Of a stretch of DNA of 64,000 bases, positions 3,171 through 53,009 are shown piece by piece. Source of the stretch: Methanoregula sp. Its GTDB lineage: Archaea > Halobacteriota > Methanomicrobia > Methanomicrobiales > Methanospirillaceae. Each line of letters starts with the position of its first letter. Within the stretch, counting starts at the first letter, position 1. The position numbers were made by a program, and so were the translations under genes. The stretch covers positions 1,372 to 65,371 of the forward strand of contig JBAZRZ010000003.1 of assembly GCA_041662685.1 (NCBI GenBank), written 5' to 3'. The notes beneath the pieces were generated by a model. It saw only the letters and a program-made list of their open reading frames with translations. It did no database searches and was not told the origin of the DNA.

Positions 3171-3815
3171 CTACTCCGCAATTTTACGGATGTATTCGAG
3201 CGCTGCAATCGCATCCTCGCGTTTCTTGTCGCAGGCATGGCTGTCAACCCACGAAAGGAACCTCTCGCGGGTTTTTGTATCAACCGCATCCCCGGCACCG
3301 GCCACGATTGCACGGTAGGTTCGTTTGGGATAGAAGAGGGACCGGGCCGCGGTAAGAAGAACATCATGAGCAGCAGCATCGAGGATCCCTTCCTCAAGAG
3401 CCCGCTTTAAGGTAAACCGGATATTGATCAATGGTTCAGAGAGTGACATGCCGGAGACCGGGTCGAACACAAGCGCCACCTCATCATCGGCAATCAGTTC
3501 CCCGCTCTTGTACATCCGGTAGATCTCACCGATACCCACCATGCCGAGCGTGTCCATCTCGGCTGCCCGGAGTGCGCCCATGCTCGATGAACCGACCACC
3601 CGGATACCGCCTTTTAACGCTGCAAGGATCTCGCGGTGGGCAACGGCTGATTCCTGGTGAAAGACACCATCGATCAGGCCGATGATTGTCGCACCCTCGC
3701 GTGCTGCGGTGATAAGATCGCCCCGCTTTGCCGGAGGCCGGTACTCTGCAGGGAGGATCTGTTCAGCTGATTTTATGTCAAGGCTTGGGCCGAGAAAGAC
3801 GATGATCTTTGGCAT
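3171..3815 (-). CDS. tfuA: TfuA-like protein (partner of YcaO, thioamidation)
   Basis: 214 aa starting MPKIIVFLGPS, with IIGLIDGVF and the GASSMGALRA-like SSSMGALRAAE motif typical of TfuA. It overlaps the ycaO 3' end. Confidence 0.85.
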   Translation of the reverse strand: MPKIIVFLGPSLDIKSAEQILPAEYRPPAKRGDLITAAREGATIIGLIDGVFHQESAVAHREILAALKGGIRVVGSSSMGALRAAEMDTLGMVGIGEIYRMYKSGELIADDEVALVFDPVSGMSLSEPLINIRFTLKRALEEGILDAAAHDVLLTAARSLFYPKRTYRAIVAGAGDAVDTKTRERFLSWVDSHACDKKREDAIAALEYIRKIAE

Positions 3816-4989
3816 GCTTCACCCGCTCGCCCCGGCGTTCGGGGTCCATTGCAAAGACTTCGAGGCCCGGTACAATCACCCGAACGACCGGAACCCCGAT
3901 CTCTTCCCGGGTCAGGTCAACGACAATGACCCGGTCGAGCCCCTTCTTCTCCAGTGCAACGATGATATTCTGGATATCTTTGAGGAAATCATCGGTGTCG
4001 GACGAGGGGATCGTTGTGTAATCCACGGTCCCGTTGTCACGGTACCAGTACCCGTTGATCCTTTTGGCCCGCTCGTAACCCATCTTTTTGCGAAGATCGG
4101 CAATCGTGGTGTCTTCCCGGGCCCCGTGGATCTGGGTGAGCCGGCTTTGGGCTACTTCAGTAAGAGCCCGCATGACAGCGATCCGTGCGCTGGTATGGGT
4201 CCCGATACCTATGGTGAGAAGGCTGGGGTCTTTTAAGAGCACGTCATCTGCCACTGCGGCGATCGTCGGGATGCCAATGTCGCTGGTGATGTCCCGTATG
4301 GTCACTTCTACCTGGGCATCGGCAAATTTCTTCTGCATATCCATAATTACCGGGTCATCGATGCCCACCACTGCGGGGCCAGTATCCCGCGTCGATTCTA
4401 CGAGCGACCAGGCGTCCCGCTCGATGATCTCGGAGAGTGCGTGGAAGACCGCCTCTTCGATGGTGTTTCCCGAAGCGAGACCGTTGGTATTTGTCCGGAA
4501 GACTCCCCGGTGCCGGGGGGGAACTGGGTGAAATACCGCAAAGGCCGGGACCCACACCGTCTCGTTATTGACAATATCGTATCCCTGGTACCAGGACATG
4601 AACCGATCCGTTACTGCACCTTCCGGCAGGATCAGGTCCACTGGATTGATGACCGGTTCGCGGCCTTCGAGTTCCTGGAACAGTGCGGTCCGGATCTCCC
4701 GGTCGTGCGCCTCGGCCGAATACCGCTCGATCCCTTCCATGATGGCTGATATCCTTGACTCCTCAACGGTTGCTCCTTTGCCGTTGTACACGGTGATAGC
4801 ACCGTCATCTGCGGTCGGGCGGATGCAGGAAAAGACCGGAATACCGATCCGGTCAAGACTCGTGATGTCGGCGACACGGGTGATACCGGCAGCGGGGACT
4901 TTTGGTTCAATGCGGTGAAGTGTCTCTTCGAGCGGGATGGCCCGCTGCGTCTCGTTGTTGTAGGTCTTTTTGCAGGAGTGGAGCTGCAT
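3778..4989 (-). CDS. ycaO: YcaO-family ATP-dependent amide-activating enzyme
   Basis: 403 aa with the YcaO core (NGKGATVEESRISAIMEGIERYSA, SNGLASGNTIEEA, ERD). It is paired with tfuA, as in methanogen mcrA thioglycine loci. Confidence 0.9.
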   Translation of the reverse strand: MQLHSCKKTYNNETQRAIPLEETLHRIEPKVPAAGITRVADITSLDRIGIPVFSCIRPTADDGAITVYNGKGATVEESRISAIMEGIERYSAEAHDREIRTALFQELEGREPVINPVDLILPEGAVTDRFMSWYQGYDIVNNETVWVPAFAVFHPVPPRHRGVFRTNTNGLASGNTIEEAVFHALSEIIERDAWSLVESTRDTGPAVVGIDDPVIMDMQKKFADAQVEVTIRDITSDIGIPTIAAVADDVLLKDPSLLTIGIGTHTSARIAVMRALTEVAQSRLTQIHGAREDTTIADLRKKMGYERAKRINGYWYRDNGTVDYTTIPSSDTDDFLKDIQNIIVALEKKGLDRVIVVDLTREEIGVPVVRVIVPGLEVFAMDPERRGERVKHAKDHRLSRPKP

Positions 4990-20385: not shown

Positions 20386-22037
20386 ATGAATGAGGTATCT
20401 GTTCTGATTGGGGGAAAAGCAGGAGATGGTATCAATAGTGCAGGCCTGATAGTGGCACAGTTACTGAACCATCTTAGTTATCGCATCTATCTCTATTTCG
20501 ATTACCCGTCCCTGATCCGGGGCGGGCACAACTTCGCAATCATACGCGGTTTGGAATGGGATGTGGGAGCCTGTCGCAACTCTGTTGATTTGGTACTGGC
20601 CCTCAATGAGGAGACCCTTGAGCGGCACAAAGAAAAATACACGGATAAGACGGTGATCATCGCCAATAAGGATCTCGTAAAGAACAGCGATCATGGTATT
20701 CCGGTAAAGGCTATCCTTGCTGACGAAAATGCCCCCGGTATCATGGGCAACTCAGCACTCATCGGGGGATTTGCCAAAACTGCAGGGATCGTGTGGGAGG
20801 TTGTTGATGCGGTGTTCCGCAGGCATATCCCGAAAGGTGCAGATCAAAATCTTGCCGTGGCAAAAAAAGCATTCGACCTGTTTGATCCTGTTCACATCAT
20901 TAAAAAATGTGAAAACCGGCCGCAGTCCCTGGTCTCGGGAAATGAAGCGATCGGATTGGGATTGGTCCGGGGCGGGCTGGATGCCTATGTATCGTATCCC
21001 ATGACTCCCTCTTCAGGGATTCTCCATTTTCTAGCCGAGCAGAAAGAGCGGTTTGGCATAACTGTTGTGCATCCAGAGAACGAGATTGCGGTGGATCCTG
21101 ATGGCGCTCGGGTTTGCGTATGCCGGAAAAAAGTCTGCAATCGGCACTTCCGGAGGAGGATTCTGCCTGATGACCGAAGGGCTCTCGCTTGCCGGAATGG
21201 CAGAACTTCCTGTGGTGCTCGTTGTTTCCCAGCGAACCGGCCCCTCAACCGGACTCCCTACCTATACCGGGAAAACCGATCTCTTGTTTGTCCTCCATGA
21301 CGGGCACGGGGAGTTTCCCCGGCTGATCGTTGCCCCCGGGGATGCACAGGAAGCCCTGTACTGGTCAGAACGAGCAATGGATATCGCATGGAAATGCCAG
21401 ATCCCGACGTGCATACTTGCCTACAAGACGCTCTCTGAAGGCATATACAGTCTTGATCCTGCCGCAACCGGGAGTCTTTCCGGTGCAGGGCCGCTCCTGT
21501 GGGATAAAACGATCCCCTATCGTCGCTATGAGAATACAGAACCGGGCATCTCCCCCTGGCATTTCCCGGTATGAATGATGCAGTAGTAAAGGTGAACGGG
21601 TACATGCATGATGACGCGGGAATCACGGTAGAAGATGCAGATACCACAAACTGGATGACAAAAAACGCTTAAAAAAAGGGGAGACCTTAACCGATGTAAT
21701 GGATGGCTTCCCCGGTGTGATCCAATCGGGCACACCCTGCGCAGCCACCGCCTTGCTCTGCTGGGGATCGACAAAAGGTGTCTGTGAAGAGGCAGCGGCC
21801 GAACTCGGTCTCCGGGTCGTACGCCCAATAGTTCTCGCTCCGTTCCCGGTCGATCAGATCAAAAAAGCACTTGCTGGTGTGAAACGGCTGATTACTGTCG
21901 AAGAGAATGCAACTGCCCAGCTGGCTGCTCTGGCAGAGCGGCATGGGATTATTACCGATGAGAAGATCCTGCGCTATGATGAACGGCCATTTACCGTTGA
22001 GGCACTGGTCCTGCGGGTACAGGAGGCGGGTATCTGA
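20386..22037 (+). pseudogene. 2-oxoacid:ferredoxin oxidoreductase gamma-alpha fusion subunit, multiply frameshifted
   Basis: Gamma domain (GGKAGDGINSAG) followed by alpha domain. The protein is spread over at least 4 frame segments, with shifts near 21095, 21570 and the A6 run at 21660-21665. Each segment continues the expected homology (ENEIAV / MALGFAYAG...; ...WHFP / GMNDAVVKVNGYMHDDAG; ...KRLKKGETL...). Confidence 0.75.
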
Positions 22038-26594: not shown

Positions 26595-27860
26595 ATGCCC
26601 ATACAGCAGATCCATGTGGAAAATTTCAAGAGTTTTTCAGAACTCGATATAGAGTTGTCCCGCTTCAATGTGGTAATTGGGTCGAATGCGGCGGGGAAAT
26701 CCAATTTTATCAGTATTTTTAAGTTCCTGCGGGACATTGCACGCCACGGTCTTGCAAATGCGATCGCGATGCAGGGAGGATCAGAGTATATCCGTAATGC
26801 ACGGATCGGGCATGCCCGGAATCTTGTGGTACGGGTTTCCTATACCCCGGATCAGAAGCTGGATCTTATCGATCATAAGACCGGTGAGACTGCACTTCTT
26901 GGGCTCCAATCGTGTGAATCCTCCTATGAATTTGCCATCCGGTTCGATGAGGAGGGTGACGGATTTACAATAATACAGGACCGGCTCGTGATTGGATGCG
27001 AGATATCGTCATGCGAACGAAAGGCAACGAGTGTCCAAGAAAACCGCACTCTTGGACGTGGGGAGATACAGGTGACCAATGAAGAGGGCTATGTGAAGTT
27101 TGCCGTAAATCTCCCTGAGGGATGCACCTTGTCTGAAAATGATATAATTCCGGTCTTTTTCCGCGGGGTACATCTCCCAAAACATGCTCTTCTCCTGGAG
27201 AGTTCGTACGCCTATCCGCTCCCGCACGTAGAGAAATTCTTTGACCGGATCGCGGTGTACGATATCGATCCAAAACTCCCGAAACGAGGGGCAGTACTCA
27301 CCGGAAAACGGGATCTTGAGGAGGATGCCAGCAATCTTGCCGTGGTGGTAAAAACCATTATTGATGATCCTGAGAAGAAACGGAAATTCTCAAACCTGCT
27401 CCGGGACATTATGCCTTTTGTAGAGGATTTCTCCGTGAAAAAGTTCATGGATGTCTCTCTTATTCTCACGCTCCGCGAACGATATGCCAAAAGCTACGAT
27501 CTACCTGCATCCTCTCTCTCTGATGGTACTATCGCCATATTTGCCCTGATCGTCGCCCTCTATTTTGAGGACAAACCATTCATTGTCATTGAAGAACCGG
27601 TAAGCCATATCCACCCGTTCTTAATCGCCCGTGTCATGGCGATGATGAAGGAGTCATCAGAAAAAAAGCAGTTGATGATCACCACCCACAGCACCGAGGT
27701 AGTCAAACATGTCCGTATCGAAGATATCCTGCTCATCTCGAGAGACAGCGATGGTTTCTCGATAATCTCGCGCCCTGCGGATAAAGAAGAGGTCAGGACA
27801 TTTCTTGAAAACGAGATCGGGATTGAAGAGCTCTATGTCCAGAACCTGCTGGGATTATGA
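26595..27860 (+). CDS. ABC/SMC-type AAA ATPase (AAA_15/21-like, OLD-family ATPase module)
   Basis: N-terminal IENFKSF-type start, Walker A GSNAAGKSN, signature-like LSDGT, Walker B FIVIEEPVSHIHP and TTHS. Confidence 0.85.
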   Translation: MPIQQIHVENFKSFSELDIELSRFNVVIGSNAAGKSNFISIFKFLRDIARHGLANAIAMQGGSEYIRNARIGHARNLVVRVSYTPDQKLDLIDHKTGETALLGLQSCESSYEFAIRFDEEGDGFTIIQDRLVIGCEISSCERKATSVQENRTLGRGEIQVTNEEGYVKFAVNLPEGCTLSENDIIPVFFRGVHLPKHALLLESSYAYPLPHVEKFFDRIAVYDIDPKLPKRGAVLTGKRDLEEDASNLAVVVKTIIDDPEKKRKFSNLLRDIMPFVEDFSVKKFMDVSLILTLRERYAKSYDLPASSLSDGTIAIFALIVALYFEDKPFIVIEEPVSHIHPFLIARVMAMMKESSEKKQLMITTHSTEVVKHVRIEDILLISRDSDGFSIISRPADKEEVRTFLENEIGIEELYVQNLLGL

Positions 27861-28420
27861 GCATGAAAAAGCGGCTTTTTATCCTGGTCGAAGGGGAAGA
27901 TGATGTCAGGTTCTTTGGCCGCATCATAAAACCCCTGTTCGTTTCCCGGTATGATTCGATCGAGATCATCCCATATGCCAGTATCAAGCGGGTGAAGGTG
28001 AACAATTTTTTAAAAAGTGTCCGGCAGATGAACAATGATTACATCTTTGTTGCAGATATCGATACCGAACGTTCAGTCCGGGATAAAAAGCAGATCCTGT
28101 TCTTCCATTTCAATAACCTCTCCGGCCACAGCATTGTTATCGTCATCAGGGAGATCGAGAGCTGGTATTATGCCGGATTGTCTACTATTTCTGCCCGTGA
28201 TCTTGGCGTTGAAGAACGTCTGGCAACAGATGATCTGTTTAAGGAAGAATTCAATGAGCTCATGCCCCGGCACTTCGATTCACGGATCGATTTTATGTTT
28301 GAGATCCTCAAATCCTTCTCGCTGGAAACAGCCGTTTTGAAAAACCGTTCGTTTAAGTTCTTTGTTGAGCGGTACCATCTTGCTGAATGGATTCCTGAAA
28401 TACTTCCCCATGATGCATGA
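27857..28420 (+). CDS. small TOPRIM-domain protein (DUF4276/DUF4435/OLD-nuclease-like)
   Basis: 187 aa with LFILVEGEDDVRFF (TOPRIM Glu), FVADIDTE (DxD) and REIESWYYAG. It has an ATGA overlap with the ATPase gene. Confidence 0.7.
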   Translation: MSMKKRLFILVEGEDDVRFFGRIIKPLFVSRYDSIEIIPYASIKRVKVNNFLKSVRQMNNDYIFVADIDTERSVRDKKQILFFHFNNLSGHSIVIVIREIESWYYAGLSTISARDLGVEERLATDDLFKEEFNELMPRHFDSRIDFMFEILKSFSLETAVLKNRSFKFFVERYHLAEWIPEILPHDA

Positions 28421-28511: not shown

Positions 28512-28679
28512 GTGACGGAAAAATACCAGTGTGCCCTCTGCGGGCATGAACACAACCCTGAAAAGGGAGAACCGCTACAGAACATCCCCCCGGGTAAGGA
28601 ATTTATATCCCTTCCGGAAGACTGGGTATGTCCGGTCTGTGGGGCCGCAAAAAGATTCTTTAACCGGAGTTGTAATTGA
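28512..28679 (+). CDS. rub: rubredoxin
   Basis: 55 aa with a GTG start; not in the ORF track. [18 protein letters not shown]...[26 protein letters not shown] has two CxxCG knuckles. Confidence 0.9.
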   Translation: [55 protein letters not shown]

Positions 28680-28684
28680 TTGCT

Positions 28685-29869
28685 ATGGTTTCACGGGAAA
28701 TTACCACGGGAATTTTTTGGGTCGGTGCGCTTGATTTTGACCGTCGTCTCTTCGATGCCCTGATCCCGCTCCCGAATGGTACGAGCTACAATGCTTACCT
28801 GATCAAGGGAAGCGAAAAGACCGCACTTATCGATACGGTTGACCCTGCAAAGGAGTTTGAGCTGGTATCGAACCTGCTCAAGCTCGGCGTTGAGAGCATA
28901 GATTATGTGGTTGTCAATCATGCGGAGCAGGATCATTCCGGTTCTTTGCCAATGATCCTCGAATTCTACCCCAATGCAATGGTAGTGACCAATGAGAAGT
29001 GCAAAGAATTACTCGTTGCCCTGCTCCAGCTCCCGGACAACCGGTTCAAGATTATCAAGGACAAAGAGACCCTGTCACTGGGTGACCGGACGCTTGAATT
29101 CCATCTGACCCCGTGGACACACTGGCCCGAGACGCAGGTAACGTACCTTAAGGAAGACCAGATCCTCTTCTCCTGCGATCTCTTCGGGTTTCACATGGCC
29201 TCTTCTGACCTGTATGTGGCTGATGATGCTGAATGCTACCTGTCGGCAAAACGATATTATGCCGAGATTATGATGCCATTTCGAACCAGTATCCGGGGGC
29301 ACCTGGCGATAATAAAAGAACTCCCGCTCGAAATGATCGCACCCAGCCACGGTCCCATTCACAAAAACCCGCAGTTCATTCTCGATGCCTATGCCGACTG
29401 GACTTCTGATGCGGTGAAAAACGAAGTCGTGATCCCCTACATCTCGATGCATGGGAGCACAGAGAAGATGGTAGAGCACCTCACCAATGCCCTGATTGCC
29501 CGCAATATTACGGTAAAACCATTCAACCTGAATGTGACAGATATCGGGGATCTTGCTCTTGCACTGGTGGATACGGCAACCGTTGTTGTAGGGACTCCTA
29601 CCGTGCTCTTTGGACCCCATCCCCAAGTGGTGTATGCCACGTACTTAACCAACCTGCTCAAACCCAAAGTCCGGTTTGCCTCCGTGATCGGATCGTACGG
29701 ATGGGGTGGCAAAACCGTAGAAACGATCGTAAAGATGCTGGACCATGTCAAGGTAGAAGTCCTTGAGCCGGTTATAGTGAAAGGGCAGCCGGATGAAGCA
29801 AAATTAAAACAGCTCGACCGGCTTGCAGACGATATATTAAAGAAGCACCGCGAGATCAACATTGTGTAA
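28685..29869 (+). CDS. fprA: flavodiiron protein (FprA, F420H2 oxidase type)
   Basis: MBL-like diiron domain (NHAEQDHSGS) plus a C-terminal flavodoxin-like domain (YISMHGSTEKM). Confidence 0.9.
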   Translation: MVSREITTGIFWVGALDFDRRLFDALIPLPNGTSYNAYLIKGSEKTALIDTVDPAKEFELVSNLLKLGVESIDYVVVNHAEQDHSGSLPMILEFYPNAMVVTNEKCKELLVALLQLPDNRFKIIKDKETLSLGDRTLEFHLTPWTHWPETQVTYLKEDQILFSCDLFGFHMASSDLYVADDAECYLSAKRYYAEIMMPFRTSIRGHLAIIKELPLEMIAPSHGPIHKNPQFILDAYADWTSDAVKNEVVIPYISMHGSTEKMVEHLTNALIARNITVKPFNLNVTDIGDLALALVDTATVVVGTPTVLFGPHPQVVYATYLTNLLKPKVRFASVIGSYGWGGKTVETIVKMLDHVKVEVLEPVIVKGQPDEAKLKQLDRLADDILKKHREINIV

Positions 29870-29886
29870 GGATGGAGAGTAAAATT

Positions 29887-30267
29887 ATGACGAAACTGTT
29901 TGAAGTGTACAAATGCGAAGTCTGCGGAAACACTACCAAGGTTATGCGTGCCTCGAGCGGGACGATGGTCTGCTGTGGGCAGCCAATGACCCTGCAGCCC
30001 GAAAAGACAGCCGATGCAGGTAAAGAAAAGCATGTCCCGGTTGTGGAAAAGTCGGGAGCGGGGATTGTCGTGAAAGTGGGGTCGATTCCGCACCCCATGG
30101 ACGAAAAGCACTATATCGAGTGGGTGGAAGTGCGGACCGGGGAGAATGTCTATGTCCGTGGATTCAAGCCCGGTGAGAAAGCCGAAGCAGAATTCTGCAC
30201 TCCTGACGCCAGCGCCAAGGTTCGCGCATACTGCAATGTACATGGGCTCTGGACGAACACACCCTGA
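29887..30267 (+). CDS. dfx: desulfoferrodoxin (2Fe superoxide reductase)
   Basis: N-terminal desulforedoxin CxxC...CC (YKCEVCGN...MVCCGQPM). SOR centre: KHVPV, HPM and C..HGLW. Confidence 0.9.
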   Translation: MTKLFEVYKCEVCGNTTKVMRASSGTMVCCGQPMTLQPEKTADAGKEKHVPVVEKSGAGIVVKVGSIPHPMDEKHYIEWVEVRTGENVYVRGFKPGEKAEAEFCTPDASAKVRAYCNVHGLWTNTP

Positions 30268-31795: not shown

Positions 31796-31887
31796 CCGGG
31801 CAAACCTGCCTGTGTTACCCTGCACCACAACTTTACTTTTCTTAACATCAGAAGATCTAATATAAATTGCCACTCCATAGTACGGTG

Positions 31888-32700
31888 ATGAAACAGATCG
31901 CCCTGTATGGCAAGGGAGGTATCGGAAAGTCCACCACCTCGGCCAATCTCTCCGCCGCGCTCTCAGGTATGGGGCTTGATATCCTGCAGATCGGGTGCGA
32001 TCCCAAGCGGGACAGTACCCGGATGCTGATGCACGGGAATTTTATCCCGACCGTCATGGACCTTGTCCGGGTGCGGGGCGAAGCCCCCATAACTCTCCCG
32101 GAGATCGAGTTTACCGGGTTTAATGGTGTCCGCTGTGTGGAGGCAGGAGGGCCGGAACCCGGTGTCGGATGTGCCGGGCGGGGGATCATCGCCACGTTCC
32201 AGCTGCTCGAGAAGTTCGGGGCCTTGAAAGGCGATGTGATTGTATACGATGTGCTCGGAGATGTCGTCTGCGGGGGTTTCGCCATGCCGATGCGCGAGGG
32301 GTATGCGCAGGATGTCTATCTCGTCACTTCCGGGGAATTGATGTCGTTGTATGCCGCGAACAACATCTGCAAAGCGATACATCGTCTTTCGTCGAGGACC
32401 AAAAGCACCTGCCGGTTGGCTGGCGTGATCTGTAATGCCCGGAACCAGCCCAATGAAGAAGAGCTCGTGGCAGAGTTTGCAAAGCGGGTGAACAGCTCGC
32501 TTATCCAGTACATTCCCCGTGATAGGGTAGTGCAACTTGCCGAACTCAACCGGAAGACCGTTATTGAGTATGAACCCGCATCTGCCCAGGCTGAATGTTA
32601 CCGCAGCCTTGCCACACGGGTGATGGAGAATACCTGTTTTACTATACCCACCCCGTTAGAGATTGATGATCTTGAATCCCTTGCCTATTCATACATCTAG
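31888..32700 (+). CDS. NifH/BchL/CfbC-family Fe-protein-like ATPase
   Basis: Walker [10 protein letters not shown], switch regions, and both [4Fe-4S] Cys contexts (GVGCAGRGI and [11 protein letters not shown]). A TATA-like TAATATAAAT lies about 25 nt upstream. Confidence 0.9.
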
Positions 32701-33709
32701 ATTCGGGGGCTGTACTCTCACCGGGGCTCTCTCGGTGACCACTCATGTCCGCAATACTGCCAGTATTGTCCATGGGCCAAAAGGGTGCACGCATCATAAC
32801 TTCTCCCTGTTACACGCTACAGGACTTGATAACGAGACCGTCACCCTGCCGGCACTGGTCTCAACTGCCTTGTGCGAAAGTGATATTGTGTTTGGTGGGG
32901 AAGGGGCGCTGCTCCGGACTCTTGAAGCAGTGGCAGAAAGGGATGTGGATGCAATTTTCGTGCTCTCTACCTGCATTGTTGATACCATAGGGGATGATGT
33001 AGCCGCTATCTGTGGCAGGGAGTATGGGGTGCCGGTGGTCGTTGTGCCAACCGCTGGTTTCCTCGGGGGGACCTTCCAGAACGGGGTTGTAAATGCTCTC
33101 TGTGCGATCGCTGAGGCCGCTGAACCATGTCCGGTGAATAACTGCGTGAATATTATTGGCGAGAAGAATCTTGAATACGAGATTGAGGAGAACTATGCAG
33201 AAGTCGTCCGTCTCTTAGGGACGCTCGGCATTCCTGTCAACCTGCGGTTTGTGCATGATATCACGTTCGATGAGATTGGGACTCTGGGTGCGGCCCGGCT
33301 CAACATCCTCCGGGAACCTGCGCTCATGCCGGTGGGTAATTACCTGAAACAGCGTTTTGGTACCCCTTTTATCCCGTCCTTCCCATTCGGGCTCTCCGGG
33401 ACCCTCTCGTTTGTGGAGTCAGTTGCCGAAACATTTGGCATAGACAGCAGTCATGCTGTGGAAAAAGAACACCTGTTCCAAAGTGATACGCTCGCTGGGT
33501 TTTCCGATCTCACCGGGATGACCGCGTCGTTTGACCCGGCGATGAGTGATCCGGATGGCGTGAATTCTTCATCCGAAGTGGCAGAGGCATTGCAGATCCA
33601 TGTGAAAAACCCGGGCACAAGCGGCATCCCGCTCGATCCCGGCACCCCGGTGGGGACAAGCGGTGTGCGGCGTATGCTCCACCACTGGAGGCGCCAGCTT
33701 CATGCCTGA
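32666..33709 (+). CDS. nitrogenase component-1-like protein (NifD/NifE/BchN-type oxidoreductase)
   Basis: About 347 aa with three Cys in NifD-like contexts: [17 protein letters not shown] and [12 protein letters not shown]. Confidence 0.8.
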
Positions 33710-34832
33710 ATGCACCAATCCCCTCTGGCCCTGTGCGATGACCGGGGCTGCTGCCTGCCTTGCAGGATTCGAGGGGATGACGGTAGTGATCCACGGATCG
33801 AGCGGCTGCTACTATTATCCCACAACACTCCTTCATGCTCCTCTGCACGGAACGTTCATTCTCGAACACGAGATCATCTTCGGCTCAGAGGACCGGCTCA
33901 ACGAAGTGATTGGCGGGTTGTCCGGCCGGGGCAAACGCATTGCGGTTATCACCACTTGTGTTCCGGCAATTCTTGGCGAGGATATCCGGTCGATGCTTGA
34001 AAAGCACGATGTGATCCTCGTGGACAGCCCGGGTTTTTCCGGGGATGTGGAAGCGGGATACAAAAATGCCCTCTCGATACTGGCACCCAGGGTTGATCCC
34101 GGTGCCAGTGGCGTGAACATTGACGGTGTCTGCCTGTTCGATCCATTCTATGCTGGCAATGTGCAGGAGATCCTGCGATTGCTGAGTATGGCCGGTATTC
34201 CGGTGGGGACAATATTTTCGCATGATCGGCTCGAAAAGGTGCAGCACGCTTCACCGTATACGATCGGTACCAACGAGGATTTCTGGAGTGGTATTGGCAA
34301 GTATTGTGGAGGGACGCTCGGGTTCCGGGCGATTGAGGCTACATTCAGAAGGCTGGGGGAGGTGTTTGCGGATGCGGATGTGGACCGGGTCTTTCTGGAA
34401 CTTGAACAGCAGGAAGAGCGAATGGTCCGGGCTTGCGACAAGTACCTGCTCCGGTTCGATCCCCCTTCTGTTGTAATCTTTGCCGGTTTTTCCTATGCAG
34501 TACATGTTGCAACGACACTCGAACGATATCTGGATGCAGATATACGGTGTATCGGTTCGCGCAATACTCCTGGCGAATCGAAATATCCTGTTGAACAAGT
34601 TACCGGGCTTGATGGGGTACGAGCCCTCATCGGACAGTATCATCCTGATCTGGTGATGGGGTCATCCTTTGAGCGTTCAGTCTGTGAAGCCCGGGCCTTT
34701 ACCAGCATCACCCCTCCGTTGAGGGGAACCATCCGGCTTGCTCCCATTCCCTTTGTGGGAATAAACGGTACCCTTTCTCTCGTGGAGCAAGTGCTCAACA
34801 CCTGCATGGACAAAAAACCGCTCAAACCCTGA
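33702..34832 (+). CDS. nitrogenase component-1-like protein (NifK/NifN/BchB-type partner)
   Basis: About 376 aa, paralogous to the previous gene. Cys contexts are WPCAMTGA, HGSSGCYYYP and ITTCVPAILGED. There is an 8-nt overlap with the upstream gene. Confidence 0.8.
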   Translation: MPECTNPLWPCAMTGAAACLAGFEGMTVVIHGSSGCYYYPTTLLHAPLHGTFILEHEIIFGSEDRLNEVIGGLSGRGKRIAVITTCVPAILGEDIRSMLEKHDVILVDSPGFSGDVEAGYKNALSILAPRVDPGASGVNIDGVCLFDPFYAGNVQEILRLLSMAGIPVGTIFSHDRLEKVQHASPYTIGTNEDFWSGIGKYCGGTLGFRAIEATFRRLGEVFADADVDRVFLELEQQEERMVRACDKYLLRFDPPSVVIFAGFSYAVHVATTLERYLDADIRCIGSRNTPGESKYPVEQVTGLDGVRALIGQYHPDLVMGSSFERSVCEARAFTSITPPLRGTIRLAPIPFVGINGTLSLVEQVLNTCMDKKPLKP

Positions 34833-34984
34833 TCTTAAGAGTAACTCCAACTTTTTCGAATACCGACCATGCAATTCTTTTCCTCTCTTGTAATTGATTG
34901 ATTTTTTCACTTTCACCCTGCGCACGGTCACGGGTTATATAGCCGGCATTGCAACGCAATACTACGACAGAAAGGTGGTCGGGT

Positions 34985-35395
34985 ATGATGAAAAAAGCAG
35001 GGTATCTCCAGCGGACCGGGTACAGCGCAATTGATAACGAAGGGAATATTCATGCAGTGATCGAATTCCATATCCTTGGAAACCGGTATGCTATACGGCG
35101 TTCTGATCTTTCAAAGGCAGTCTCCGGTCACGTCTTTGTGCAACTGAAGGAGCTCACCCACCAGTGGCAGTACTACCTTGGCGCAGTAAAAGGGCTGGCA
35201 CAGGTCTCGGTCTCCGGTAAAGCCTTAAACATCGAGTTGTTCGAGGTCGGGAATTTTACGGTCTCCTTAAACTCGCTCCGTGGTGTGATGTACGGAAAAG
35301 AGCGTCTGACAACCATCGTGAAGATCCCGGTACAGCCTGCCATCAGCGCCCGTCGGGGTGTCTACGGGCAGCAGCAGATCAGTGCGGTAGTATAA
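34985..35395 (+). CDS. hypothetical protein
   Basis: 136-148 aa ORF with no motif I recognise. The coding call rests on length and position only. Confidence 0.3.
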   Translation: MMKKAGYLQRTGYSAIDNEGNIHAVIEFHILGNRYAIRRSDLSKAVSGHVFVQLKELTHQWQYYLGAVKGLAQVSVSGKALNIELFEVGNFTVSLNSLRGVMYGKERLTTIVKIPVQPAISARRGVYGQQQISAVV

Positions 35396-35516: not shown

Positions 35517-36524
35517 GTGGAGAAGAACACTCCTCTTTTATCCGGTAATTCAGACGTGAACCGGCACAAAGAAACAGTGGTTAGGATGATAGACACCACG
35601 GATACTATGTACCGGGATCTGGTGGAATGCCAGCAGGATCTGATCGTTCAGTTCAATCTGGAAGGCCACCTTCTTTTCGTGAACTCTGCATACTGTGAAG
35701 CGGTAGGGAAATCCAGAGGGGCATTGGCCGGTAGTGTGTTCATGCCCGTCACCAGCGAGCGGTATGCTGACGTTATTGCCACCCAGATGACCAAACTCTT
35801 CCGTCCGCCATTTGCCTGCACTGTGGAGCAGTGGATCCAGACGCCCAAGGGAATGCGGTGCTTCAGCTGGTCGGCAAAGTCTGTGCTGAATGGTTCTGCT
35901 ACGGTAGAATCGATCGTAGCTACCGGCCATGATATCACCCGGATCAAGAGCGAGCAGAGAGCGATAAGAAAGAAAGATGAGAAACTGATGCTCGCCATCG
36001 AGAGCGGGAACCAGATGTATTACACCCATACTCCTGATCATACCATGATGTTTGTGAGCCCACGGCTCCGGACACTTCTCGGGTGTCGCCCAAATGACGG
36101 AAAACGCATCTGGACCGATTACCTCACTGATAACCCGATGAATGGCGCGGGGCTTGAACGGACGATCAAGGCGATCGCATCCGGCAGGCGCGAGCCTCCC
36201 TACCGGCTGGAGATGAGCACGCGTGACGGGCGCATCATACGGCTTGAAGTCAATGAGATTCCGCTGGTGAAGAATGGAAAGACGGTCTCGATAGCGGGTT
36301 GCGTAACCGATGTTACCGAAAAAGCGCTGGTTGAAGAAGGGTTGGCTGAGGCAGAGATTTTGATTCCTGACCTTGCTCCTGCAAAAAAGTGTCTCGCAGG
36401 GCAACCGGTTTACCCGGTCTCCCGCCCAAAAAAGCCGCTTGGTTTTTTCCAGCCCCTCTTCTCCCGGAAGCCGGATGAGGAAGAGGATGATATTTTTTCT
36501 GACCTTCCCCGGAACCTGAAATAG
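35517..36524 (+). CDS. PAS-domain protein (two PAS/PAC modules, no output domain)
   Basis: Contains YRDLVECQQDLIVQFNLEGHLLFVNSAYCEAVG, and a second module with ...MFVSPRLRTLLG... Confidence 0.7.
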   Translation: MEKNTPLLSGNSDVNRHKETVVRMIDTTDTMYRDLVECQQDLIVQFNLEGHLLFVNSAYCEAVGKSRGALAGSVFMPVTSERYADVIATQMTKLFRPPFACTVEQWIQTPKGMRCFSWSAKSVLNGSATVESIVATGHDITRIKSEQRAIRKKDEKLMLAIESGNQMYYTHTPDHTMMFVSPRLRTLLGCRPNDGKRIWTDYLTDNPMNGAGLERTIKAIASGRREPPYRLEMSTRDGRIIRLEVNEIPLVKNGKTVSIAGCVTDVTEKALVEEGLAEAEILIPDLAPAKKCLAGQPVYPVSRPKKPLGFFQPLFSRKPDEEEDDIFSDLPRNLK

Positions 36525-51249: not shown

Positions 51250-52020
51250 TCAGGACCCGTTCTTTGCCGAGATCCGCTGGTCATAAATGCGGATTGCACG
51301 CAGCAGGTCGATCTTACGGAACATGGGCCAGAACGGGGAACAGAAATAGACCGCCGATTCATGGCCATTTGCCAGCCACGGGAGGAAATTTGAGGTGCGG
51401 CATTCATTTCCGGTTCTTATGATCAAGTCTACCGGTGGTATCCCTTTACCTGCGTGAAGGTGCTGCTCTACCGTGTGGACATCGATGGTATCCGGGTTGA
51501 TCCCCTTCTGGGTTACTTCTGAAAGGATCTCGCGGGCGGCAAGGACGATCTCGTTTCTCCCGCCATAGGCTAGCGCGATGTTAAGATTGAACCCGGTATG
51601 GTCTTTTGTCGCTGTTTCGGCAGCATCGATGGCAGCCAGCAGGTCATCGGGAAGTAAGGAACGATCCCCTACCATCTGGACGCGGATCTTGTATCGCTTC
51701 ACCCGCTCATCGGTGAGTATACTGACAAATTTTTCTTTGAACAGGGCAAAGAGCATCCCAACCTCGTCCTGCTTACGGGAGAAGTTCTCGGTTGAGAAGG
51801 TATAGAGGGTGATATGACTGATGCCGAGTTCATGCGCCCAGTCCAGCATCTCCTCTGTCTTATCCGCCCCTGCCCGGTGACCTCTGGCAGTATCGACACC
51901 CAGCAGTTTTGCATACCGCCGGTTACCATCCTGGATAATTGCGATATGATTGGGCACATGCCGGCACTGCATGCGGAGGAAGCGCTCATACAGGGGATCG
52001 ATCAGGGTGCGAAGGATCAT
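51250..52020 (-). CDS. uppS: undecaprenyl-diphosphate synthase family cis-prenyltransferase (catalytic)
   Basis: HIAIIQDGNRRYA, a RAGADKT-type motif, LYTFSTENF, and IRTG.E.R.SNFLPW. Confidence 0.9.
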   Translation of the reverse strand: MILRTLIDPLYERFLRMQCRHVPNHIAIIQDGNRRYAKLLGVDTARGHRAGADKTEEMLDWAHELGISHITLYTFSTENFSRKQDEVGMLFALFKEKFVSILTDERVKRYKIRVQMVGDRSLLPDDLLAAIDAAETATKDHTGFNLNIALAYGGRNEIVLAAREILSEVTQKGINPDTIDVHTVEQHLHAGKGIPPVDLIIRTGNECRTSNFLPWLANGHESAVYFCSPFWPMFRKIDLLRAIRIYDQRISAKNGS

Positions 52021-53009
52021 AACGGGGTCATCTCGACTATCATGTCATCGTTGGGGTATCGCTCGATGACAAATTTCTCCCCCTTCATTTCATCGGCAAA
52101 TTTGGTGAGCAGCCACCATGCCATCTCGATCCGGTCACCACAGTCCTCGTAGCTGTCCGGTTCGCACGTATCTTTGCAGAGTAAAAGACAGGCACTTTTA
52201 TCGGTTTCTGACGGTTTTATGACGCCGTATACGATCGTTCCGTCCTCGGTGATCTCATCAAAGGGACGGGCGGTGTTCTGTGCGATCCGCTTCAGTCGTT
52301 CGCGCAGTTGCACCGCGTCCTTGAACCCGGATGAGCACCAGTGCACCTTGTCGTGCCGGCAGAGTTCTTCTGCCCAGCCTTTTGCACCATCGATCGCATT
52401 GTGCAGCTCATCTGCGAGTTCGTACCCCCGCTCCCGCATCTGGTACGCGTTTGACTCCCCCCATTCCAGTTCATTGATGTTGAGGAAGTCCAAGTATGGC
52501 AAGGCGGGGATGAGGTGTTCGAGCCCGGGCAGGGCCGGAACTTCGACCCCAATGTCAAAACCCATCTCTTTTGCCCGTTGTGCCGACCGGATAAAATCCG
52601 ATTCGAGGATCTTCTCCCAGCATTCATGCGGGGGATGGAGTCGGATCTCGTCGACCAACCCCTGCATCTCTGCGAGTTCGGCATCGATTGGAACCTTTGC
52701 GGTGTACAGGTGAATCTGGTGTTCCTTTCCGAAATGTGTTTTGAGCTGCCGGCAATAGGCGGTCACCTTGTCAAGGACAAGCAGCGGTTCTCCCCCGGTG
52801 ATGCCGGTGCCCAGCGCACTCATGCTCTCCGCCACTTCGATGATCTTGGCGGGGATATCCACCGGGTGCTCGTTTGCAAATACGGTATCGGTCCCCTTCC
52901 GTTCGGAAGAGAGCGGGCAGTACCAGCAGGAGCGGTGGCACCGTCCCGTAACAAAGAGGACCATCTTTGCGCCCTGGTGACAGAGAATGCAGCCTTGTGA
53001 GAGTGTCAT
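52017..53009 (-). CDS. radical SAM domain protein
   Basis: CHRSCWYCP is a CxxxCxxC cluster motif near the N-terminus. ATGA overlap with uppS downstream. Confidence 0.75.
   Translation of the reverse strand: MTLSQGCILCHQGAKMVLFVTGRCHRSCWYCPLSSERKGTDTVFANEHPVDIPAKIIEVAESMSALGTGITGGEPLLVLDKVTAYCRQLKTHFGKEHQIHLYTAKVPIDAELAEMQGLVDEIRLHPPHECWEKILESDFIRSAQRAKEMGFDIGVEVPALPGLEHLIPALPYLDFLNINELEWGESNAYQMRERGYELADELHNAIDGAKGWAEELCRHDKVHWCSSGFKDAVQLRERLKRIAQNTARPFDEITEDGTIVYGVIKPSETDKSACLLLCKDTCEPDSYEDCGDRIEMAWWLLTKFADEMKGEKFVIERYPNDDMIVEMTPL

Follow-up and report, generated by a model that had tools for sequence, protein, structure and literature searches.

We describe a three-gene cluster, here called H-D-K, at positions 31888-34832 of a 64,000-nucleotide stretch of Methanoregula sp. 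DNA from a metagenome-assembled genome (GenBank assembly GCA_041662685.1, contig JBAZRZ010000003.1; hereafter the window), encoding a nitrogenase-like Fe protein of the CfbC type (H) followed by two paralogous component-1 subunits (D and K). Our preferred reading, to which we assign a probability of roughly one half, is that D and K would form a CfbC-driven D2K2 reductase with a single all-cysteine cluster at each subunit interface and an organic, possibly tetrapyrrole, substrate. What we observed are the identities of the genes, the conservation of the ligands, the distribution of the clade, purifying selection and the contexts of the genes; from these we infer heterotetramer formation, cluster type, the sharing of CfbC and the class of substrate. 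The three genes are as follows.

31888-32700, plus strand: H, a NifH-family Fe protein of the CfbC type, 270 amino acids, with Walker A motif GKGGIGKS and cluster ligands Cys95 and Cys128.
32666-33709, plus strand: D, an alpha-type (NifD/NifE-like) component-1 subunit by sequence, 347 amino acids, with Cys16, Cys41 and Cys103, Arg216 at the position of NifD Cys275, and a shortened domain III.
33702-34832, plus strand: K, a beta-type (NifK/NifN-like) component-1 subunit by sequence, 376 amino acids, with Cys11, Cys36 and Cys86.

An initial annotation of this DNA had proposed an overlapping cluster of an Fe protein, with Walker A motif and both cluster cysteines, and two component-1 paralogues of about 350-375 amino acids each, and we confirmed all of these features. 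The genes are co-directional, and the overlaps of 35 nucleotides (H/D) and 8 nucleotides (D/K) are both seen again in related loci, with the upstream ATG that creates the D/K overlap also present in loci L001 and L084. H matches PF00142 (E = 5e-105), whereas D and K match PF00148 (E = 1e-53 and 2e-38, respectively), the match of D covering only model positions 1-255 of 399. The D sequence is the same as that of an NCBI entry called 'nitrogenase component 1', and K is a paralogue of D (29% identity over 193 amino acids). Ratios of non-synonymous to synonymous substitution rates are low (0.04 for H; 0.08-0.16, or about 0.1, for D and K), indicating that all three are real genes under purifying selection; these values and the invariant ligands described below led us to reject a pseudogene or relic reading. 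From this arrangement we infer a single H-D-K operon, and sequence reading identified putative transcription signals on either side of it.

31858..31867, plus strand: TATA-like box TAATATAAAT, 21-30 nucleotides 5' of the H start codon, a putative archaeal promoter of H-D-K.
34849..34910, plus strand: three oligo-T tracts 3' of the K stop codon, a putative archaeal terminator of the H-D-K transcript.

The Fe protein, previously described as part of a NifH/D/K-type cluster, is not an orphan 'NifH-type' gene. H passes the CfbC model NF033200 (406.8 bits versus a cutoff of 402) and stays below the cutoff of the nifH model TIGR01287 (384.3 versus 394.35 bits). Furthermore, NCBI names the identical protein MFA6224830.1 CfbC, and H orthologues from Methanoculleus and from the L088 lineage, which is related to Methanocalculus, bear the same name. 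On the CfbC model, the H orthologues of six other loci reach 398-423 bits (five of them 410-423 bits), each more than its own nifH score. The best solved relative of H is the NifH of entry 6nzj (1.2e-94, 320 bits), and Cys95 and Cys128 of H are the equivalents of NifH Cys97 and Cys132. CfbC, which donates electrons in an ATP-driven manner during coenzyme F430 synthesis, is to our knowledge required by every methanogen. A 2009 comparative table lists one NifH homologue each in M. marisnigri (Memar_1937) and M. hungatei (Mhun_0793), two in M. labreanum and three in M. boonei; given the general need for CfbC, the single homologue of the first two genomes must be CfbC. H corresponds to Mboo_2083, as indicated by the NusA-like gene Mboo_2073, ten genes from Mboo_2083, and by the equal spacing between H and the NusA-like gene in the syntenic locus L001. 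H is probably the housekeeping CfbC, that is, the F430 reductase, shared with D/K, rather than a dedicated third component.

The two subunits that follow H fall far below the cutoff of every NifD, NifK, NifE, NifN, Vnf, Anf and Bch model, in agreement with the earlier proposal that the cluster is not a canonical nitrogenase. The best curated score of D is on the nifE model TIGR01283 (112.5 bits versus a cutoff of 505.1), and K reaches at most 43 bits on any curated model. Scores on the nifN model TIGR01285 are 32.4 bits for K and 30.0 bits for D (cutoff 326.8), those on the NifDK, VnfDK and AnfDK models (TIGR01282, TIGR01286, TIGR01860, TIGR01861 and others) are 17-98 bits (cutoffs 427-874), and those on the BchN, BchB, BchY and BchZ models are 15-76 bits (cutoffs 420-529). 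The CfbD model TIGR03282 likewise gives only 41.1 bits for D and 38.3 bits for K against a cutoff of 268.4. The earlier statement that the cluster departs from a plain CfbCD layout is upheld; the first gene is itself of the CfbC type. For D/K, 'uncharacterised reductase' stays an apt label.

To place D and K among their distant relatives, we compared family profiles with solved structures. The D profile retrieved NifEN (152 bits), clostridial NifD (120 bits), VnfD (117 bits) and NifE (111 bits), followed by MarK (95 bits), MarD (92 bits) and BchB (85 bits), while a search with the single D sequence gave 46.6 bits for MarD and 54.9 bits for MarK. The K profile matched NifK (72 bits) and AnfK (68 bits). 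On these sequence comparisons D is classed as an alpha-type and K as a beta-type subunit. The confident AlphaFold2 model of D (predicted local distance difference test 87, predicted template modelling score 0.86) matched NifEN, NifD, MarD and ChlB about equally in Foldseek, with template modelling scores of 0.65-0.74. Measured against bacterial relatives, D is without some 60-80 residues of domain III.

An exhaustive search over 1.84 billion representatives yielded about 20 full-length members of the D family at 220 bits or more, the next proteins scoring at most 155 bits. In a neighbour-joining tree built without the published Group IV-D and IV-E reference sequences, D and K each define a clade of their own with 100/100 bootstrap support. 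All named members belong to the Methanomicrobiales (Methanoregula, Methanoculleus, Methanovulcanius, Methanomicrobiaceae, Methanocorpusculum and Methanocalculaceae), and the literature that we searched contained no description of the D/K clade.

The cysteines of D and K lie in the motifs GGC16, HGPKGC41 and STC103 (D) and PC11, HGSSGC36 and TTC86 (K). HMMER alignment to solved structures places Cys16, Cys41 and Cys103 of D on NifE Cys37, Cys62 and Cys124, which equal NifD Cys62, Cys88 and Cys154, and Cys11, Cys36 and Cys86 of K on NifK Cys70, Cys95 and Cys153. We assessed their conservation in 17 D and 8 K sequences diverging to 36-37% identity. Cys41 and Cys103 are invariant in D, and Cys16 is absent only from one N-terminally truncated sequence; the three K cysteines are kept in all eight sequences after correction of miscalled starts, which had removed the first K cysteine in two loci. 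The three P-cluster-like cysteines originally read in each paralogue are thus aligned with nitrogenase-type ligands and conserved across both sets.

The same alignments address the suggestion that D and K appear too short to carry the full binding region of the iron-molybdenum cofactor, and for D they bear it out: the equivalents of both Cys275 and His442 are missing, together with part of domain III. The position of NifD Cys275 (NifE Cys250) is occupied by Arg216, invariant in the 17 D sequences; in the alignment to solved structures, Arg/Glu takes the place of the precursor-binding cysteine of NifE. None of the D sequences has a conserved histidine (the equivalent of His442) before the C-terminal PVGTxGxxRMLxxWRR motif. 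Outside the cluster motifs, the D and K alignments hold no invariant cysteine or histidine. From this ligand pattern, a single interface cluster held entirely by cysteines is predicted, and no second cluster. The combination of an apparently complete P-cluster site with no second cofactor site is absent from the characterised members of the superfamily.

The six P-cluster cysteines, together with the H-D-K gene order, are what a true or alternative (Nfa-like) N2-fixing nitrogenase would share with the cluster. Nevertheless, this explanation is close to refuted, as the alpha subunit is truncated and devoid of Cys275 and His442 equivalents, all nitrogenase models fail, and nifB, nifEN and nifI are not linked. 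The absence of nifI1/I2, nifB and nifEN from the window had been noted before and stands, with no match to nifB, nifE, nifN or nifI among the approximately 50 window open reading frames scanned. Nor is there an NrpR-type operator (GGAA-N6-TTCC) near the promoter, the two matches in the whole window being at chance level. A radical S-adenosylmethionine (SAM) open reading frame of 330 amino acids is located at 52017-53009 on the minus strand, its coding region overlapping the end of a gene for polyprenyl diphosphate synthase; NCBIfam models, those for NifB included, gave no match at 1e-10, and for this reason we do not consider it NifB.

The resemblance of D to NifE and NifEN, its best matches in both sequence and fold, raises a different explanation, in which D/K would be a NifEN-like scaffold or maturase for a complex Fe-S cluster, be it the [8Fe-9S-C] cluster in the activation complex for methyl-coenzyme M reductase (MCR) or a nitrogenase cofactor, with H acting as NifH does on NifEN. 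The interface cluster of NifEN receives just one cysteine from NifN. In contrast, K keeps three interface cysteines, and in D the ligand corresponding to NifE Cys250 and NifD Cys275 is replaced by arginine. NifB is universal in methanogens and L-cluster-like clusters are found in the MCR activation complex (PMC12176620), which counts in its favour; yet nifB and nifX are not linked to the cluster, its named members are confined to one order whereas MCR activation is universal, and the scores remain far under the cutoffs (NifE 112 versus 505 bits, NifN 32 versus 327 bits). We regard this explanation as improbable.

The H-D-K layout with P-cluster cysteines is also typical of Group IV nitrogenase-like enzymes, and the similarity of D to MarD and MarK is detectable. 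D/K could accordingly reduce a small molecule in the manner of methylthio-alkane reductase (Mar) or isethionate reductase (Isr), breaking a C-S or comparable bond so that a nutrient can be assimilated. Mar nonetheless scores lower (92-95 bits) than NifE, NifD and VnfD (111-152 bits), the cysteine ligand of an L-like cluster is missing, and no archaeal locus examined has a radical-SAM 'B' partner or adjoining sulfur-metabolism genes, making such a function very improbable.

A closer alternative follows from the identity of H itself. D/K might be the Methanomicrobiales catalytic component of F430 synthesis, either replacing CfbD or carrying out with CfbC part of the six-electron reduction and lactam formation. 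The position of D-K directly 3' of cfbC, with an overlap that suggests translational coupling, and the CfbD-like size of D (347 amino acids) would fit such a role. Against it stand the scores of D and K on TIGR03282 (41 and 38 bits versus 268), the report of CfbD in all methanogens (Kaster 2011 supplement), its reported universal conservation (10.1101/2023.10.20.563283), and the composition of CfbD, which is homomeric with two cysteines per chain (PMC13474568), whereas D and K have three each. D/K are also absent from a 2009 list of clusters common to all four Methanomicrobiales genomes; the 2009 signature-cluster table omits Mboo_2080-2084, Memar_1936/1938, MA3628 and COG2710, and because those genes and COG2710 are absent from the list it is uninformative on D/K or CfbD. 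We consider this role in F430 synthesis unlikely. All of these alternatives rank below the CfbC-driven D2K2 reductase.

Gene context was compared across the related loci, which brings in two genes downstream of K.

34985-35395, plus strand: X, a small beta-rich protein of 136 amino acids, an accessory gene in some lineages only.
35517..36524, plus strand: a PAS-only protein with two PAS domains (PAS_4 and PAS_9 matches) and without an output domain, whose membership in the system is doubtful.

Some 80 Methanoregula loci are syntenic, with the order FprA, desulfoferrodoxin, TrkH, H, D, K, X, PAS and leuBDC, and this synteny says little on function. More telling variation is found elsewhere: L083 has H-D-K-X in a different genomic context; L084 and L085 have D-K-X with no H adjoining; in Methanoculleus, H lies directly 5' of D while K is about 5 kb off on the other strand; and H-D-K lacks X in the loci of the Methanocorpusculum type, of Methanomicrobiaceae and in L088. 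These varied contexts indicate that D and K are the constant pair, that H is usually attached, and that X is a lineage-restricted accessory. Furthermore, the absence of an adjoining H in L084/L085 and the distance of the Methanoculleus K from H-D suggest that D-K is able to use an H encoded elsewhere. Neither the window nor the 10 kb around the cluster in 94 loci revealed a further H, D or K paralogue. Among the archaeal loci examined, H-D-K has no constant nif, cfb, nickel or sulfur gene in its vicinity. NikR was considered as a conserved partner and rejected, since it lies directly 3' of the cluster in L086 but 7 kb off in the Methanocorpusculum locus L092.

The closest relatives of D outside the clade are bacterial (Limnochordia, an unclassified bacterium, Desulfococcaceae, Nitrospinae, Chloroflexota and Tectomicrobia), with 36-38% identity and a joint neighbour-joining clade supported at 65/100. 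In three of the four bacterial loci examined, H-D-K is embedded among cobamide salvage or uptake genes, at the following positions.

L089:7198-10368; L090:7054-10690; L091:8001-11648: bacterial H-D-K clusters in cobamide loci.

The neighbours in these loci include a TonB-dependent receptor, Peripla_BP_2, FecCD, CobA/BtuR and CbiZ, as well as CobT, CbiB, a CobD-type aminotransferase and CbiK. We found no paper linking nitrogenase-like H-D-K to cobamide loci in the literature searched. The bacterial proteins share with the archaeal D the three cysteines and a C-terminal PxG..G....W motif. They differ in the greater length of D (372-450 amino acids), in the partial loss of the K cysteines and in their cobamide, rather than cfbC, context. 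Specifically, two of three bacterial K subunits carry Asp at the first cysteine position (L090:9356-10690; L091:10368-11648), and one of these two is also without the third cysteine; the Asp recalls the ligand set of three cysteines and one aspartate in dark-operative protochlorophyllide oxidoreductase (DPOR). In Desulfococcaceae, a NifH-D fusion of about 740 amino acids is encoded and a radical-SAM gene follows K.

We propose the following mechanism for the CfbC-driven reductase. D and K would form a D2K2 core with one cluster per D/K interface, to which each subunit would contribute three cysteines, either as a P-cluster-type [8Fe-7S] cluster or as a [4Fe-4S] pair, and the core would lack a second site of the iron-molybdenum-cofactor or L-cluster type. 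A CfbC dimer would dock onto this core and transfer electrons, in an ATP-dependent manner, to the interface cluster, which in turn would reduce an organic substrate held in the cavity equivalent to the nitrogenase cofactor site, as occurs with protochlorophyllide in DPOR. Our best guess for this substrate is a tetrapyrrole, either an F430-related nickel compound or a corrinoid, because the operon starts with cfbC, the sister clade occurs in a cobamide context, and cofactor-less relatives reduce tetrapyrroles. Indeed, the characterised nitrogenase-like enzymes without a complex cofactor, namely DPOR, chlorophyllide oxidoreductase (COR) and CfbCD, all reduce tetrapyrroles (PMC13474568).

Several observations weigh against this reading. 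H exceeds the CfbC cutoff by less than 5 bits and the L083 orthologue lies just below it (397.9 bits), and the two NifH homologues of M. labreanum and three of M. boonei mean that a separate, dedicated CfbC could conceivably exist in Methanoregula. The known tetrapyrrole-reducing relatives use a single [4Fe-4S] cluster held by four ligands, not six cysteines, and six-cysteine sites elsewhere, as in Nif and Mar, accompany a second, catalytic cluster. In the archaeal loci, moreover, H-D-K is not accompanied in any consistent way by tetrapyrrole, nickel or cobalt genes, and the cobamide context comes from relatives at only 36-38% identity in which the K cysteines are partly lost. What is unusual here, and the main reason for caution, is that a six-cysteine site has no cofactor downstream of it.

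A more specific version of the proposal, which we put forward tentatively and consider possible rather than probable, is that CfbC would have two partners in the Methanomicrobiales: CfbD and an order-specific, cofactor-less NflDK with a six-cysteine, P-cluster-type site, which would reduce an F430 derivative or a corrinoid in an ATP-dependent reaction. If true, D/K would be the first tetrapyrrole reductase with a P-cluster, and would have its bacterial counterparts in the nitrogenase-like cobamide-salvage clusters. A CfbC serving two partners would also parallel NifH, which serves both NifDK and NifEN. The D/K clade is kept in four or more families of a methanogen order that is dominant in the environment, its tie to the F430 reductase gene offers a concrete experimental handle, and the bacterial sister clusters hint at a broader, undescribed branch of the superfamily with a relation to tetrapyrroles. 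New nitrogenase-like chemistry has reportedly emerged repeatedly: F430 synthesis (2016), C-S cleavage (2020) and sulfonate reduction (2024). A 2026 review names uncharacterised nitrogenase-like clades as the main gap of the field. In practical terms, metagenomic surveys should leave D and K out of their nitrogenase counts.

The hypothetical gene and the PAS gene downstream of K had been suggested as members of the system, a proposal that holds in part for X and is doubtful for the PAS gene. X is co-conserved with D-K in three genomic contexts, its homologues following D-K in Methanoregula, in L083 and in L084/L085 (39% and 34% identity), but it is absent beside H-D-K in four lineages (Methanoculleus, Methanocorpusculum and two others). 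X is equipped with a separate TATA-like box (34933-34944) and with a GGTGG that resembles a Shine-Dalgarno sequence. The X family comprises only 364 proteins, with no Pfam or NCBIfam match and no fold match in the PDB; its confident AlphaFold2 model (predicted local distance difference test 83) consists of a duplicated beta-beta-beta-alpha unit. The PAS gene adjoins the cluster in Methanoregula loci only, where the whole region is syntenic. At the place that X has in Methanoregula, the Methanocorpusculum locus L092 encodes a 61-amino-acid DUF1858 protein after K (L092:10285-10470).

On the 5' side, directly upstream of TrkH and H-D-K, the window encodes a flavodiiron (FprA-like) protein and a desulfoferrodoxin (28676-30267), and in several Methanomicrobiales families this oxidative-stress pair, joined by rubredoxin in some loci, accompanies the cluster. 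Two Methanomicrobiales loci have a gene of the phosphoribulokinase family just 5' of TrkH and H-D-K (L087:6639-7670 and L088:6682-7638).

Three further regions of the window were recorded. At 3171-4989 (minus strand), a TfuA-like gene stands beside a YcaO gene of the 'methanogenesis marker 1' type, a pair annotated for McrA glycine thioamidation. At 26595-28420, an AAA_15/21 ATPase gene overlaps a gene for a 187-amino-acid protein with a weak OLD-like TOPRIM match; in PADLOC the pair hits the candidate defence system HEC-01, with weaker matches to AriA/AriB, AbiL and mad3/mad4, and it is syntenic in most Methanoregula loci. At 20386-21574, a 2-oxoacid:ferredoxin oxidoreductase alpha/gamma gene is apparently split into an open reading frame of 304 amino acids (model positions 1-248 of 561) and an overlapping one of 169 amino acids. 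This may be a frameshift or an assembly error, since the L001 equivalent encodes a single product of 550 residues.

Among known systems, CfbCD shares several features with the cluster: H meets the CfbC model with its Walker A motif and both cluster cysteines, D is CfbD-sized, the host is a methanogen, and ligands for a complex cofactor are lacking in both. The present cluster differs in having two paralogous catalytic genes instead of one homomeric CfbD, in missing the CfbD model by more than 220 bits, and in the three interface cysteines of each subunit compared to two in CfbD. NifEN is the top sequence, profile and fold match of D, and likewise has an alpha/beta heteromeric layout and no His442, but D is without part of domain III and the Cys250-type precursor ligand, the interface cysteines of K number three, and no nif genes are nearby.

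With MarHDK (Group IV-C) and the other Group IV systems (Nfa, Isr and the uncharacterised IV-D/E), the cluster shares the H-D-K operon, the P-cluster cysteines and the loss of His442. In contrast to them, it has no MarB/NifB-type radical-SAM partner and no L-like-cluster cysteine, its alpha subunit is shorter, and its Fe protein is of the CfbC type. The Group VI paralogues of Elusimicrobia are similarly uncharacterised and without iron-molybdenum-cofactor ligands, and their gene context has prompted the proposal of a tetrapyrrole role. Their Fe protein, however, is about 40% identical to NifH and sister to Group V, whereas H is of the CfbC type, and they keep at most four of the six cysteines with many radical-SAM genes nearby, compared to six of six and no radical-SAM neighbours here.

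Finally, DPOR and COR (BchLNB and BchXYZ; Group V) differ from D/K in that the [4Fe-4S] cluster of DPOR is held by three cysteines and one aspartate, whereas D/K keep six cysteines; in addition, D/K fail the Bch models, and the host is non-phototrophic. BchB is nevertheless among the detectable relatives of D, and the combination seen in Group V of an ATP-driven Fe protein with a heterotetramer that carries a single interface cluster and reduces an organic substrate provides the model that we propose for D/K.

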